A DNA stretch of 64,000 nucleotides from an uncultured Planctomycetota bacterium (GTDB lineage: Bacteria; Planctomycetota; Planctomycetia; Isosphaerales; Isosphaeraceae): contig CAWJTV010000005.1 of assembly GCA_963845755.1 (NCBI GenBank), forward strand, positions 480,001 to 544,000, given 5' to 3'. This document shows positions 30,785-58,989 of this stretch, piece by piece; within the stretch, counting starts at the first letter, position 1; each line of letters starts with the position of its first letter. A program made the translations under genes and the position numbers. The notes beneath the pieces are model-generated. The model was not told the origin of the DNA. It saw nothing but the letters and a program-made list of their open reading frames with translations, and did no database searches.

Positions 30785-30805
30785 TGTTGCCAAATTGTTG
30801 CCAAA
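30785..30805. promoter_or_regulatory. Putative integrase arm-type sites (11-bp tandem repeat)
   Basis: TGTTGCCAAAT-TGTTGCCAAA; identical 21-mer at 40324-40344. Confidence 0.7.
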
Positions 30806-30866
30806 CGCTCCAGAATTACAAGGATAAGGGGTCGCGCCTCTCGACGCAACCCCTTATGCTGCTTAG

Positions 30867-30912
30867 TGCCGAAGACAGGACTTGAACCTGCACGGGGTAG
30901 TTAACCCCACTA
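30867..30912 (-). pseudogene. tRNA-Leu(NAG) 3' fragment (att-like), interrupted by IS630; continues at 33848-33855
   Basis: Minus strand reads AGGT CCTAG, long variable arm GGGGTTAACTACCCC, T-arm GCAGGTTCAAGTCCTGT, acceptor CTTCGGC-A. Confidence 0.8.
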
Positions 30913-30920
30913 GTGCTTTG

Positions 30921-31627
30921 TCACAGCTTAATCTTAGGGTAGACCGACGTGAGTTTACCGCGAGCATCGTCGATCTTCATTTGCCAATCCACGCCGCGCT
31001 GGGTGCTGTTGACATCGGATGACCAAGCGCCGGTCTCCGCTCGCAGGGTGGGAACATCGCCGAAGCGGCGACCGGACACGCACTGGCGTGTCAGGGAGCT
31101 CAGCTCATTCTCGGCGATGTTCAGCCAGCTACCGTGCTTGGGCGTGTAACAGAACTCGATGCGGCAGACCAACTCGCGCGCGCCGGGCGGGTGCAAAACT
31201 CTCGTAGAATGCGCCTTTGGTGTGCGTGTTCAAGTTGTCGCACACGACGATCACGTGCTCGGCGTCGGCGTAACGGCCTTCCATCAGTCGAGCCATCTCG
31301 ATCGCCCAGTCCACCTTGGTTTTCGTCTCGCGAACGGCCACCTCGCGCCAACCCGCCAGTGGTTCGGTGAACATGAAGATGTTCGCTGTCCCGCGCGCTC
31401 GTACTCATAGTCCACGCGCCGGCCGTGTCGGCGGGTGGCGGGGATGGGCACGCGGGTCTCCTTCAGCAACTGCACCGGTTGCTCGTCCATGCCCAGCACC
31501 GGACGGGCGGGATTATAAGGTATCGCGTAGGTCTCCAGCACTTCCTCCATGTTGGCTACGAACTCGCCGTCGGCCTTGGGCGGGATGACCCAGTACTCAA
31601 GCTTACGGTTGGTCATGCCGTTTTTTT
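30921..31627 (-). pseudogene. IS630 transposase, DDE part (extra frameshifts)
   Basis: MDEQP, DYEYER, DNLNTH, YTPKHGSWLNIAENE motifs spread over three frames. Confidence 0.9.
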
Positions 31628-33256
31628 CTAGGCTGGCAAAGTTAGCTGGAGGCAGCGTTGCTCCAAGTCCTTGAGATAGGCCTCGGGATTGTGACGGAAC
31701 CGGCGTTGCTTCCGCCGCGATTCCCGTCGCACCTCCAACTCCGCGCGCCATTCCTGCCAGTCCTCAACATAGCCCGGGCTCAACACCAAGCCTTCGTCCG
31801 GCCGCAGCCGCGTCGCCAGCCCCGAGATCACCCGCGCCGAGCCCATCACCACCAGGCCCGGCGACCCCCGACGCCGACCGCTGGCCCGGCGCTCGTGGTA
31901 GCGATGACTGCCGAAGGTGTGCTCCAGGTCGTTATTCGTCCGCGGCAGATCCGACGACTCGTAGCAGGCAAACAAGCCCGGCCAGTAGCTCCGGGTCACC
32001 TTCACGAACTGCTTCAAACCCGCCCGCACCGCGGGCTCGTCCGTCGTCGCCACCGCCCGGCGCATTCGCGCCAGCAGTTGCACCATCCGCCGTCGCACCT
32101 TCTTCGCCGGCAGCCCCTCCTCGTTCTTGAGGATCCGGGCGGCGCGCTTGACCCATTGGTACGACTCGCGCACCGCCGGGAACAGCGCGGCCGTCTCCTC
32201 CAGCCCGCGCCGCAGCAATTGCCTCAGCCGTTTCAAACCCCCGGGCAGGTCGCCCGCCTTGGCGACGACATCGTCCAAGCTGGCGGCAATCCGGCTCAAT
32301 CGATCCTGCCGCTTCAGCCCGGAGGCCGAAAGCGGTGGCAGTCCGTCGTCGGTCAAGGCCCCGCGCACCGCGGCGCAGTAGTCCCGCACCACCTCCGCCT
32401 CCGCGTCCTCCGCGTCGTCCTCCAGCTCCTTCTCCGCCTGGCGCTCGATCTTCCGGATGCCCCGCACCCGCTTCTTCAACTCCTTCTTGGCGTGGCGATC
32501 CGCCTCGTAGATCGGCTTGGCCGCCTCGCGGAAGTAGTGGAAATGGCAGAGCTGATGGGGGACACCTTTGAGGGCGATAGCCACGGCGTTGCGGATGCTC
32601 TCCTGACCGTCGGAGACCACGCCGGTGATCGGCACCGGCAGGACCTTCCGCACCTGGTCGATCAGGCCGGCCAGGTCCTGGGCGGTGGACGACAGCAGGC
32701 TCTTGGCCAGGAGGATCTCGCCGGAGAGGCAGTCGCGCAGCACCCAGAGGACCTCGTGGCCGACATCCGGCTGCAGGCCGTCGATGGCCAGGATGACGCG
32801 GCCCTGCGGGCGCAACAGCGGACCGAGTCGCTGGGGATCGGCCGTGGCCAGGGACCGCAGCTCGTCGTAGCGGTCCAACAGGTTGGTGACGGTGCGTTCG
32901 GCCAGGATGAGCCCGCGGTGCGTGAGCTCGCGGTGGATCTCGGGGATGCTGCGGTGCTCGGCATAGCGGAGCCGGCCGACCAGCGCCATGACGTCGAGTC
33001 CGAACTCATGATAAGGCAAGGCGAAGTGGGGCTCGGCCTCGGGCCGATAGGGGCGGAGGAAGCGGGGGCAGGTGGGATTGGGGCAGCGTCGGATGGTCAG
33101 GGTCAGTCGGAAGACGCCGTCGAGAGTACTGATGGTGCGATAGTTATTGTAGTCGGCATAGGTCCGGTGCTGGCATTCGGGGCAGTCAAGAAGGACCGGC
33201 GTCAGGGTCAGGGCCCGGTCCGGTTGCGGGCGTGGTCGTTGTCGTCGTTTGCGCAT
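31628..33256 (-). CDS. Transposase (ISNCY-like, 542 aa)
   Basis: CxxC...CxxxxC zinc ribbon, IDGLQP, VVSDGQ, HQLCHFHY, PRTNNDLEH; the stop codon lies within the IR. Confidence 0.85.
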   Translation of the reverse strand: MRKRRQRPRPQPDRALTLTPVLLDCPECQHRTYADYNNYRTISTLDGVFRLTLTIRRCPNPTCPRFLRPYRPEAEPHFALPYHEFGLDVMALVGRLRYAEHRSIPEIHRELTHRGLILAERTVTNLLDRYDELRSLATADPQRLGPLLRPQGRVILAIDGLQPDVGHEVLWVLRDCLSGEILLAKSLLSSTAQDLAGLIDQVRKVLPVPITGVVSDGQESIRNAVAIALKGVPHQLCHFHYFREAAKPIYEADRHAKKELKKRVRGIRKIERQAEKELEDDAEDAEAEVVRDYCAAVRGALTDDGLPPLSASGLKRQDRLSRIAASLDDVVAKAGDLPGGLKRLRQLLRRGLEETAALFPAVRESYQWVKRAARILKNEEGLPAKKVRRRMVQLLARMRRAVATTDEPAVRAGLKQFVKVTRSYWPGLFACYESSDLPRTNNDLEHTFGSHRYHERRASGRRRGSPGLVVMGSARVISGLATRLRPDEGLVLSPGYVEDWQEWRAELEVRRESRRKQRRFRHNPEAYLKDLEQRCLQLTLPA

Positions 33257-33332
33257 GGGTGGATTCCTCCCGGGGTTCGATCTCCTCTTTCTACGCTCCC
33301 GGAGGGCTTTCCAGCCACTTTTGCCAGCCTAG
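31628..33332 (-). mobile_element. Insertion sequence (ISNCY-like) inserted in the poly-A slippery site of IS630
   Basis: IRs CTAGGCTGGCAAAGTTAGCTGGA / TCCAGCCACTTTTGCCAGCCTAG; flanked by T7 and T8 runs. Confidence 0.85.
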
Positions 33333-57458: not shown

Positions 57459-57476
57459 GCGTTAAGGACGGGCGGC

Positions 57477-58799
57477 CTACCCGAACACACTCTTTAGTGC
57501 CTCGGCCTGGACGCTCGGATACAAATGCCGATAACGCTTCCGTTGCTGCTCGGTGCTGTGACCGACCCACTCGTCGATGAGACGCTGGTCGATGCCCTTC
57601 GAGGCGCAGGCGGAGATGAACGAGTGCCGGAAATTGTGCCAGCCTCGCACTACCGACCATTCCGATCCAGTCAGCGCGCGCTTCAAGTGGTCGCCGGCCT
57701 CATCTTCAGTCAGCGGCAGGATGCCTGGCCGCGTTCGCTCCGTGACGCCGACCAGCCTTTCCTTCACGGTGCCGGGCCGGCCGTTCCACAGATGGCCGGT
57801 CGTGCGGCTGCGCTTCTTGCTTCGTTCGACATGCTCGGCCTGGGCGAACAGGTACGCGCCGCCTGGGTGGATCTTCAGCCAGTCGGTCAGGATCGCCGCC
57901 AGCGTGCTCGATAGCGGCATGCGGCGCGTCGTCCTGCGGCCATGCGCCCGCTTCTTTTCCTGGATGCTGACGACGCCCGCCGCGAAGTCCACGTCGCCGA
58001 TCCGCATCCTCAGCAGCTCGCCCTTGCGCGCACCGGTGTGAGCTGCCGTCGCCACAAGCGGATAGATCCACGGATAGCCGGCCCGCTCCTTGACGTGGGC
58101 CAGCAGCCTCTCCACCTCGGGCAGCGTCAGGTAGAGCGCTTCCCACAATTCGGCGGCCTTCTTCGGCGGCAGGCCGGGAAGTTGCCGTTCAATCTCGGCG
58201 CGCGTCTGGAACAGCGGCTTCTCGTCTGATTTCGGGTAGCGCAGGCCGTCGTAGGGATAACGGCCCGATACGATCTTCATCCGCACCCCCCAGTTCCAGG
58301 CGGTGCGGAGCGTGACGATCTCCTTTTCGATCGTCAACGGATTCAGCGTGCCGCGCCTCCCCTTGGCTTTGGCCCGCTTATCCACATAGCCCTGCAAATC
58401 GGCCAGGGACAGTTTGCGAACTGGAAACCCCTCTCCGAGCAACCGGCCCAGGTGCCGGAAGTGCCGCCGGATGCCCCGCAACGTGTGATGCTCGAGGGTG
58501 CCGTTGCCATGCGTTTCCAGGTAGCGGTCTCGGAGGTCGGCCAGCGTCGGTTCGCCGTGAACGGCGGGCGTACCCTGTGCGGCGGGTATGAGGCCATCGT
58601 GCCGGACGAAGGCTACGACATCGACCCCTTGCTGGAGCGTGAGCAGGCCCTGCGATAACCGCATGAGCAGGTAATCGACTTGATCCGCTTTGGCCTTCGC
58701 CTCGGCCTCGGTGACGCGGCCGATGGTGAAAACCCGCTGTTTCCGTTGGTACGCGAAGAAGATTCGGTAGCTGCCGTTCCTGTTCTGTAGCGACGCCAT
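57477..58799 (-). CDS. Tyrosine recombinase/integrase (Int2), paralogue of Int1
   Basis: HTGARKGEL, HNFRH, VGH, RKRY; aligns along its length with 29378-30757; directly downstream of the tRNA. Confidence 0.95.
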   Translation of the reverse strand: MASLQNRNGSYRIFFAYQRKQRVFTIGRVTEAEAKAKADQVDYLLMRLSQGLLTLQQGVDVVAFVRHDGLIPAAQGTPAVHGEPTLADLRDRYLETHGNGTLEHHTLRGIRRHFRHLGRLLGEGFPVRKLSLADLQGYVDKRAKAKGRRGTLNPLTIEKEIVTLRTAWNWGVRMKIVSGRYPYDGLRYPKSDEKPLFQTRAEIERQLPGLPPKKAAELWEALYLTLPEVERLLAHVKERAGYPWIYPLVATAAHTGARKGELLRMRIGDVDFAAGVVSIQEKKRAHGRRTTRRMPLSSTLAAILTDWLKIHPGGAYLFAQAEHVERSKKRSRTTGHLWNGRPGTVKERLVGVTERTRPGILPLTEDEAGDHLKRALTGSEWSVVRGWHNFRHSFISACASKGIDQRLIDEWVGHSTEQQRKRYRHLYPSVQAEALKSVFG

Positions 58800-58844
58800 C
58801 TGGCTTGCCTTTCGGTCAATGCCACCCCAATGCGATGGGGTAGG

Positions 58845-58876
58845 TCTTACCAATTCCTTACCAAAGCTATTGGTAA
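58845..58876. promoter_or_regulatory. Putative arm-type sites next to Int2
   Basis: TCTTACCAATT-CCTTACCAAAG plus inverted TTGGTAA. Confidence 0.55.
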
Positions 58877-58904
58877 TCCTATCCTGGAATCGCCATAAGT
58901 CCAA

Positions 58905-58989
58905 TACCGGCGGTGGGATTCGAACCCACACGGGGGTTCCCCCCCAGAGGATTTTAAGTCCTCAGCGTCTGCCATTCCGCCACGCCGGC
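58905..58989 (-). tRNA. tRNA-Leu(TAA)
   Basis: Full cloverleaf: GCCGGCG/CGCCGGT-A acceptor, GAGGA-CTTAAAA-TCCTC anticodon arm, long variable arm, GTGGGTTCGAATCCCAC T-arm. Confidence 0.95.

Follow-up and report, generated by a model that had tools for sequence, protein, structure and literature searches.

A tandem array of integrase-less modules bounded by tRNA-Leu-derived junctions in a planctomycete genome and its relatives

Tandem genomic islands with integrase-less members are known from streptococci, Dehalococcoides and Prochlorococcus, and the principle is not new. Cis-mobilizable elements (CIMEs) of streptococci keep both attL and attR, carry no genes for integration or transfer and lie in tandem with an integrase-bearing element on the 3' side of the target gene (PMC5704250). 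Dehalococcoides has tandem islands downstream of ssrA that are delimited by direct repeats of the ssrA 3' end, with fifteen islands devoid of an integration module, which the authors of that study considered possible cis-mobilizable elements (PMC3146451). In the tycheposon islands of Prochlorococcus, successive integrations at a single tRNA push older elements inward, with partial tRNAs and fragmented integrases scattered among them (10.1101/2020.12.28.424599). Here, we describe a locus of comparable design in an uncultured planctomycete of the family Isosphaeraceae, within a stretch of 64,000 nucleotides (nt) that we call the window (G000:C5:480001-544000; positions below count from its first letter). 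In this window, an intact tRNA-Leu(TAA) gene and the tyrosine integrase Int2 head a train of modules, B to E, which are separated by tRNA-Leu-derived junctions and contain no integrase. The reading that we favour, and hold to be moderately probable, is that integrases of a lambda-like family built a site-specific accretion array here, out of non-autonomous modules that resemble CIMEs. A literature search on planctomycete genomic islands surfaced no paper on such arrays; the search was narrow, and no unpublished status is implied.

The source assembly (G000) comprises 14.27 Mb in 49 contigs and is 88% complete. For comparison, 121 genomes of the family were searched with a 225-nt query consisting of arm and core (E <= 0.001); at most six candidates were scored per genome, so that all counts of arm copies are lower bounds. 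The own-genome similarity query spanned 51560-51860. Protein families were assigned by Pfam on 41 open reading frames (ORFs) of the window, and integrase homologs were sought by tblastn with Int1 and Int2 (E <= 0.01). Genomes are labelled G (G046 being of the same genus as G000), fetched loci L and contigs C; feature coordinates are collected in the table below.

tRNA-Leu-derived junctions and their arms

Downstream of tRNA-Leu(TAA) and Int2, repeat search and alignment locate five tRNA-Leu fragments, at 55738, 51593, 47343, 40179 and 30864, all in the same orientation as the intact gene, in agreement with a first-pass annotation that had recognised five co-oriented remnants from the letters alone. 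None of them duplicates the resident tRNA-Leu(TAA): the four proximal fragments have the loop CTCAAAA, with anticodon CAA, and from about position 16 onward agree with the tRNA-Leu(CAA) gene as read in seven relatives of the family, and the fragment at 30864 is of CAG/GAG type. In the proximal fragments, the sequence 5' of tRNA position 16 is non-tRNA and the 5' acceptor strand is absent. Comparison of the repeat with its own genome and with relatives, which the first-pass annotation had proposed, returned long matches in many genera and, within G000, matches at 47343 (E = 3e-89, the lowest), 55738 (4e-25), 40178 (2e-7) and 35249 (0.02); by this measure, the fragment and arm homologies in the window lie far beyond chance. 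ARAGORN calls some arm-bearing copies in relatives tRNA-Leu(CAA) genes, an assignment that we rejected because these copies have no 5' acceptor strand and their acceptor stem cannot pair. A canonical long-arm tRNA-Leu(CAA) was not found by ARAGORN in the source assembly, whose incompleteness means that this proves nothing. Outside the window, at G000:C41:591614-592516, the program calls five genes tRNA-Leu (GAG, CAG, CAA, TAG and TAA), four of them only 73-76 nt long and without the long variable arm of bacterial tRNA-Leu; the sole CAA-anticodon tRNA of the assembly belongs to this cluster.

The ends of the copies are confined to two places. The 3' ends of arm-bearing copies, taken from 44 BLAST rows with some overlap among loci, lie at query positions 225-228 (10 rows) or 263-268 (34 rows), with none between, position 225 being the last base of the anticodon stem and 268 lying just past the tRNA 3' end. 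We accordingly distinguish "half" and "full" junctions, and because copies end at these two places alone, we place the crossover in the anticodon stem-loop; the observed ends fit the pattern expected if strand exchange took place in the loop, with the stem providing the core-type sites. The first-pass prediction of breakpoints at the CTCAAAA loop is borne out by this bimodal distribution, the inner class of ends lying at the 3' edge of the anticodon stem. A motif scan adds the junction at 40168 of the window and further half junctions. Among the half junctions, those with a palindromic core form a group of their own, with one member in the window (40179) and copies with the same right side in G038, G043, G026 and G044; in these, an inverted copy of the D-arm follows, yielding a palindrome of about 15 bp around a 7-nt loop. 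The fragment at 30864 is the mirror case of the half junctions. Williams, in 2002, reportedly described a class of tRNA-targeting tyrosine integrases that cross over in the anticodon loop. The crossover point and integration at secondary sites can readily be assayed by means of the discrete full and half classes.

Next to these cores lie conserved arms with 11-bp-spaced TTGGNAAC repeats. At 51593, 47343 and 40179, the layout is the same: one inverted copy stands 10 nt upstream of the fragment, and three direct repeats follow at about 100 nt. The first-pass annotation had seen a homologous arm at four remnants; arms are indeed present at four places (51769-51800, 47477-47508, 40312-40343 and 35270-35302), but only three fragments adjoin one, since the arm at 35270 lost its fragment to an insertion sequence (IS), whose transposase ORF ends at 35213, and the fragment at 55738 has no arm repeats. 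Nor are the repeats confined to junctions, as they also occur between tRNA and integrase gene before Int1 and Int2. The doublet TTGG[GCT]AA[CG]N3TTGG[GCT]AA[CG] is found six times in the 14.27-Mb genome, five times in the window and once on contig C25, between tRNA-Leu(CAG) and a broken Int1-like gene, and all six occurrences adjoin the Int1/Int2 integrase family or the junctions described here. In module C, the homology of the P arm to relatives continues to about 47790 and shows no codon periodicity.

On the opposite side, two classes of P' arm follow the fragments: an integrase type, with repeats at +84 and +95 and then the integrase gene, and a class that we call F2, which extends over about 290 nt and is free of arm-type repeats. 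The F2 arm of the window ends in a 35-nt tandem repeat (55447-55516). It is also found after copies in G036 and G029 and after the real tRNA-Leu(CAA) of G009, where the module with the F2 arm ends again in a P arm and a fragment. The 35-nt unit occurs in two tandem copies at 51317-51387 as well, so that it lies about 220-290 nt past two tRNA fragments of the window, and it recurs at the same distance in relatives (L041, L043 and L050). At about 47760-47815 on the plus strand, just upstream of the 428-amino-acid (aa) ORF of module C, a T-arm-like motif (GGTTCAAATCC) is followed by a hairpin and a T run; this region is homologous to L041:3746-3836 and L043:8162-8252, where it stands past the F2 arm and faces the other way with respect to the junction. 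A small gene within the F2 arm was considered and ruled out, as the ORFs run antisense across the fragment, codon periodicity is missing and the window copy is out of frame; a small gene or recombination directionality factor in the extended P arm (47570-47830) was likewise dismissed, there being no periodicity and no NCBIfam match for its two short ORFs.

It is very improbable, in our view, that the conserved 225-450 nt accompany the genes as a promoter, a tRNA-like RNA or some other regulatory or RNA element. High conservation of a non-coding segment without codon periodicity, part of it tRNA-like, is what such an element would display. Nevertheless, no Rfam family besides the real tRNA is detected at E <= 0.1, the fragment has no 5' acceptor strand, the same 11-bp repeats precede integrase genes and are found nowhere else in the genome, the homology ends at discrete core positions and the orientation of cargo relative to the arm element is variable.

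Integrases and their tRNA-Leu targets

Both integrases of the window bear the marks of active-site conservation. The start of Int2, set by alignment with Int1, lies 106 nt past tRNA-Leu(TAA), and residues R258, K283, H388, R391, H414 and Y423 (R-K-H-R-H-Y) are invariant in 28 aligned sequences that include Int1 and Int2; named relatives of Int2 come from Singulisphaera, Paludisphaera and Tundrisphaera. These genera, together with a DUF1559 match in the window, suggest a planctomycete of the Isosphaeraceae or close to them. The AlphaFold model (predicted local distance difference test, pLDDT, 82.6) has N-terminal strands at residues 3-7, 10-17 and 20-27 and a helix at 31-49, with pLDDT of 85-89, and its best Foldseek matches are Tn1549 Int and full-length lambda Int, the latter aligned over 437 columns. 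Pfam detected no arm-binding domain family in the integrases in the scan of window ORFs.

The genes of this family keep to one kind of neighbourhood. An Int1-like copy on C25, 83% identical and broken, with one in-frame TGA, lies just 3' of tRNA-Leu(CAG), and a partial Int1 homolog on C14 lies just 3' of tRNA-Leu(GAG); together with Int1 and Int2, each copy is located just 3' of a tRNA-Leu gene or fragment. In G014, 20 nt that match the arm repeats of modules B and C exactly lie between a real tRNA-Leu(CAA) and an intact integrase that is 63% identical to Int1. Judged by these positions, the integrase family appears to be specific for tRNA-Leu. Because of integrase location, catalytic residues and fold, we read the 11-bp-spaced repeats as arm-type sites of a heterobivalent, lambda-like integrase, to which the N-terminal domain would bind. 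The C25 locus (G000:C25:12342-16471, outside the window) holds the tRNA-Leu(CAG), the arm doublet and the broken gene; with a second partial integrase, 45% identical, 3 kb beyond, it may be another small array.

The repeats differ among modules, and so do their counterparts at integrase genes. The first two repeats of module D match those of Int1 over 19 letters, the repeats of module E (GGTAGC, GGTAAC) resemble those of Int2 (GGTAAG), and the repeats of modules B and C (GGGAAC) match those of the CAA-type integrase of G014 and G030. The first-pass proposal that the modules are accumulated or mobilised in trans by Int1 or Int2 is only partly supported, as these two integrases look doubtful as helpers for modules B and C. 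Of the seven bases of the core loop, one differs between the CAA and the TAA type, and in tyrosine recombinases a one-base mismatch in the loop should hinder exchange with the resident tRNA.

The history of the site can be approached through G046, in which tRNA-Leu(TAA) is unoccupied. The two genomes share the right flank, and the sequence to the left in G046 corresponds to G000:C5:411397-413535, at a distance of about 125 kb from the tRNA of G000. Between the two tRNA-Leu(TAA) genes, differences lie in the variable arm, past the anticodon on its 3' side, and G046 has one extra letter in the T-loop; the variable-arm difference would fit if the Int2 unit had replaced the 3' part. We considered an attR at the far end, G000:C5:413.5k, and rejected it, as nothing tRNA-like was found there.

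These comparisons raise the possibility that the CAA-type modules came as passengers, either as cargo of an island of about 125 kb that Int2 inserted at tRNA-Leu(TAA) or through IS-driven rearrangement. The empty site and displaced flank in G046 speak for such a history, as do the position of a CAA-type array behind a TAA gene, when the arrays of relatives are anchored at real tRNA-Leu(CAA), and the presence of active IS copies. However, neither a fragment nor an arm of TAA type was found at the far end, C5:413.5k, and other rearrangements separate G000 from G046. Such an origin, which we regard as unlikely, would explain the location of the array only and not its integrase-less modularity, and it is compatible with either accretion or decay.

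Integrase-less modules in the window and across the family

Between 35.3 and 55.7 kb of the window, neither Pfam nor tblastn with Int1 and Int2 detects a recombinase. At its head, module B has a fragment and the F2 P' arm, and it closes with a P arm and a fragment; modules C and D run from core to core, each with a P arm on the tail side. We counted as bounded intervals the stretches between two consecutive junctions in the fetched loci. None of the 26 intervals in relatives holds a full-length Int1/Int2 homolog and two hold fragments, and in the window one of four holds an integrase, namely Int2, giving one full-length gene and two with fragments in 30 intervals overall. No recombinase or transposase Pfam domain was found in the array ORFs of five genomes (94 of 168 candidates, shorter overlapping ORFs having been dropped). 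Hence, in the sequences compared, the integrase-less state appears to be the rule among bounded intervals.

Matches to the 225-nt arm and core occur in 111 of the 121 genomes, most of them limited to 29 nt of the real tRNA. Many genera have long matches (88-98% identity), often several per genome, which cluster at distances of 3.6-13 kb (e.g., G036:C2, G029:C9, G044:C11 and G030:C6). The arrays are usually anchored at a real tRNA-Leu(CAA), and in five relatives (G040, G010, G009, G034 and G006) this gene is followed by a module and then by arm and fragment, with no integrase detected by tblastn. The arms are 93-98% identical across genera, against about 80% for the flanking genes of G000 and same-genus G046, pointing to recent horizontal spread. 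In G026, an Int2-like unit with a TAA fragment lies inside a CAA array. Cargo that recurs in relatives includes an extracytoplasmic function (ECF) sigma factor beside a large Ser/Thr kinase-TPR protein (L040, L041, L042, L043, L044, L046 and L048), and one of these arrays also has an nSTAND NTPase and an FGE-sulfatase domain.

Module B recurs beyond G000. Its segment 51860-55200 is 94-95% identical in G036:C2 and G030:C5, both of other genera, and adjoins an arm copy in both; tRNA-Leu(CAA)-type fragments lie at both ends, no Int match is found at either locus, and the neighbours differ from those in G000. In G036, the F2 P' arm stands on the head side and arm plus full fragment on the tail side, and in G030 a fragment lies 250 nt from the head and arm plus half core at the tail. 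The first-pass view of the repeats as att junctions of a tyrosine-integrase system, separating modules without a recombinase of their own, agrees with these findings, module B recurring as a unit in two genera. In G044, the cargo is 86% identical, with an arm on the head side only. The gene pair of module C is found at 87-89% identity in three genomes, and its genes occur singly in others, away from listed arm copies. The 428-aa ORF has a second copy in its own genome (G000:C47:278217-279319, 86% DNA identity) and copies at 85-91% in many genera, with or without an adjoining amidase.

Several observations weigh against the reading that we favour. The cargo of module B is 89% identical in G023, where it has neither arm nor integrase, its head side is not conserved between G000 and G030, and the cargo of B and C occurs without any arm in G023, G011, G014 and G038; therefore, the cargo genes themselves are mobile or widely shared, and the conserved part is cargo, P arm and core. 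The CAA-type integrase with GGGAAC repeats was not found in the assembly, at its 88% completeness. Of five array-rich relatives examined for the cognate integrase, G030 has an intact gene, G044 a broken one and G036 and G029 a distant or partial one, and in G040 (63% complete) none was found, so that most arrays would be orphaned at present. Just past the fragment on its 3' side, L040 (13316-13438), L032 and L034 carry an integrase stub, and L028 has a P' arm with repeats but no integrase gene; some modules therefore probably arose by deletion of the integrase gene. Because the loci were selected for their similarity to the arm, the sample may lean towards an integrase-less subfamily. Finally, public runs queried for excision consisted of contigs from soil and permafrost metagenomes, with shares <=0.22 and four runs compared at 90% likeness; neither an excision product nor a circle nor an empty junction came to light in them, and the joints in these metagenomes had a shorter side of <=47 letters and lay at repeats and tRNAs, giving no evidence either way on excision.

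Many of these points, along with an integrase fragment in L043 (2195-2422) and, in the window, the broken gene of module B, the IS insertions and the truncated arm, would also follow from plain decay, in which the modules are fixed corpses of once autonomous integrase islands, the arms are merely young and nothing moves. Such a course equals the three-step model published for CIMEs (PMC5704250). We nevertheless deem decay as the whole account somewhat improbable. An integrase remnant is found in only two of 29 integrase-less bounded intervals, the other 27 having none, and the roughly 290 conserved nt of the F2 P' arm hold no integrase vestige. In addition, the arms are nearly identical across genera where the neighbouring DNA differs, from which we infer that the integrase-less form itself spread recently. 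The first-pass annotation had named simple decay, with each module part of a larger element carrying its own integrase, as the outcome that would speak against it; full-length integrases are missing from the intervals of relatives, but some decay, in the form of stubs, a pseudogene and IS insertions, is evident.

In the accretion mechanism that we favour, lambda-like tyrosine integrases of Isosphaeraceae-like planctomycetes would target long-arm tRNA-Leu genes, crossing over in the anticodon stem-loop with the 11-bp-spaced repeats as arm-type sites. Modules B-E would belong, as non-autonomous elements, to the tRNA-Leu(CAA) branch of the family, each keeping a conserved P arm (200-450 nt) and core and B a conserved P' arm in addition. 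Given that they have no integrase, they would depend on another element to supply one in trans or be excised in cis, jointly with a neighbour that has an integrase. The array would have come to lie behind tRNA-Leu(TAA), beside a minimal Int2-only unit and within the roughly 125 kb absent from the G046 site, and to have partly decayed there. What the sequences show are the junctions with their two discrete classes of ends, arms conserved between genera, modules without integrases, and the fold and catalytic residues of the enzyme; the order of events, the movement of modules by a foreign integrase and the binding of the repeats by the N-terminal domain are inferred. More tentatively, and as a possibility that we rate below an even chance, there could be a division of labour, in which minimal integrase-only units (tRNA, Int2 and fragment, about 1.7 kb without the IS) coexist with a large pool of cargo-only cassettes that are captured, stacked and exchanged at tRNA-Leu, in the manner of integron cassettes at attI, and spread between genera. 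Under such a division, the cassettes may consist of the conserved arm and anticodon-arm core, with cargo that is often an ECF sigma factor and a Ser/Thr kinase or another large partner, and the palindromic-core subclass may enter existing junctions only, never the tRNA itself. If integrases from elsewhere do move the modules, such transfer would rank among the main ways in which these genomes acquire and rearrange sigma-factor and kinase modules.

As for the contents of the window, the metalloprotease noted in module B by the first-pass annotation is present as an HExxH gene but as a pseudogene; its homolog in G036 is intact, with 1054 aa, FG-GAP repeats and one HExxH motif. Beside Int2, the IS4-family copy has 17 matches in its own genome including itself, the other 16 at 98-100% identity, and without this insertion the stop of Int2 would lie 176 nt from the next tRNA fragment. 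Module D contains four copies of a 57-nt motif (41803-41859, 43459-43515, 43831-43887 and 44831-44887) with an invariant core, TATAGTTG...CGGAC, each preceding a small ORF of no known family on the minus strand. The motif appears to be the common promoter or leader of a small set of paralogous genes; an identity as integron attC was rejected, as the repeats align instead as a TATAGT-containing upstream motif before small ORFs. Farther from the array, two RHS-repeat protein genes (1122 aa and 375 aa) occupy 70-4578 on the plus strand, and region 1-30000 includes, besides pieces of rve and IS66 transposases, an ORF in which ECF-sigma and polysaccharide-export parts are fused (17300-19489, minus strand).

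Table. Features of the tRNA-Leu array and its surroundings (window positions).
Feature	Position	Strand	Remarks
Int1, tyrosine integrase, 459 aa	29378-30757	-	52% identical to Int2
Int1 P' arm repeats	30785-30804	-	TTGGCAAC type, two copies; ahead of Int1
CAG/GAG-type tRNA-Leu 3' half	30864-30907	-	variable arm, T-arm, acceptor; homology from 3' strand of anticodon stem
IS debris	30921-35213	mixed	DDE_3 fragment, IS66-like ORF (weak match), HTH_32 ORF, DDE_Tnp_1 transposase
Module E P-arm remnant	35249-35302	-	GGTAGC/GGTAAC/GGCCAC repeats; core side cut by IS
Module E cargo	35352-40100	-	ECF sigma factor (within ORF 39528-40343), 1329-aa Big_3_5 protein (35352-39341)
Half junction, palindromic core	40166-40208 (fragment 40179-40208)	-	stem-loop between D-arm sequence and inverted copy
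Module D P arm	40209-40345	-	first two repeats 40325-40343, inverted repeat 40218-40226
Module D	40346-47342	-	small ORFs of no known family, one DUF1559-like N-terminus
Half junction	47343-47372	-	D-arm and anticodon stem-loop only; homology ends at 3' edge of anticodon stem
Module C P arm	47373-47816	-	repeats 47477-47508, inverted repeat 47382-47390
Module C cargo	47823-51005		amidase ORF 49236-51005 (-); 428-aa ORF 47823-49109 (+), no known family
Full junction, modules B/C, tRNA-Leu(CAA)-type fragment	51593-51665	-	from repeat search and alignment
Module B P arm	51666-51860	-	direct repeats 51769-51800 (GGGAAC, GGGAAC, GGCAAC), inverted repeat 51675-51683
Module B cargo	51916-55089	-	one FG-GAP/HExxH gene, broken over at least four frame changes
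Class F2 P' arm	55449-55737	-	about 290 nt, conserved, no arm-type repeats, no codon periodicity
Full junction, tRNA-Leu(CAA)-type fragment	55738-55810	-	about tRNA position 16 to 3' end; no arm repeats upstream
IS4-family IS	55971-57460	+	frameshifted transposase ORFs 55888-56559, 56193-57449
Int2, tyrosine integrase, 440 aa	57477-58799	-	start set by alignment with Int1
Int2 P' arm	58845-58865	-	two 11-bp-spaced repeats (TTGGTAAG type), between tRNA and integrase start
Intact tRNA-Leu(TAA)	58905-58989	-	ARAGORN, only intact tRNA of the window; Rfam tRNA 57 bits; array head

Comparison with known tandem islands

The nearest likeness is with the CIMEs and the accretion of ICESt1 and ICESt3 in streptococci, with which the modules share the retention of both att ends and the lack of integration and transfer genes (PMC5704250). 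Unlike these, the planctomycete array reaches up to seven junctions in a row (G029), has long arms that are 93-98% conserved across genera and has the integrase-less form as the majority; no conjugation genes were seen in the Pfam scans of the window or of the array ORFs. The Dehalococcoides islands rely on a serine recombinase (CcrB-like), a 20-bp repeat and the T-loop of tmRNA (PMC3146451), whereas the planctomycete array has a lambda-like tyrosine integrase, about 70 nt of tRNA, repeat arms of 200-450 nt and the anticodon loop. Tycheposons are defined as carrying an integrase (10.1101/2020.12.28.424599), in contrast to modules B-E, which have none and have kept both arms.

With the class of integrases that act in the anticodon loop, the planctomycete family has in common the crossover in a 7-nt loop, the symmetric stem as core-type sites and an element that would restore the 3' part of the tRNA. 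It departs from this class in that the identity block reaches back to the D-arm and in that the palindromic cores, with an inverted D-arm in place of the tRNA 3' half, cannot restore the tRNA. The arrangement also recalls integrons, in which one integrase beside a primary site is followed by promoter-less or small cargo units that each end in one site. However, the planctomycete sites are tRNA-derived and not attC hairpins, and the arm repeats and tRNA target are lambda-like; an integron was ruled out, as the integron-integrase models gave 37.6 and 39.8 bits (cut-off 265) and 31.5 and 24.0 bits (cut-off 435).

Compared with the known tandem islands as a whole, the array stands apart in the mixing of elements for different tRNA-Leu isoacceptors, in its two junction classes and in its host group. 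It adds to them a well-delimited and widespread family in very large planctomycete genomes (10-16 Mb), in which the integrase-less form is the norm, with long arms that are near-identical across genera and that often accompany pairs of regulatory genes.

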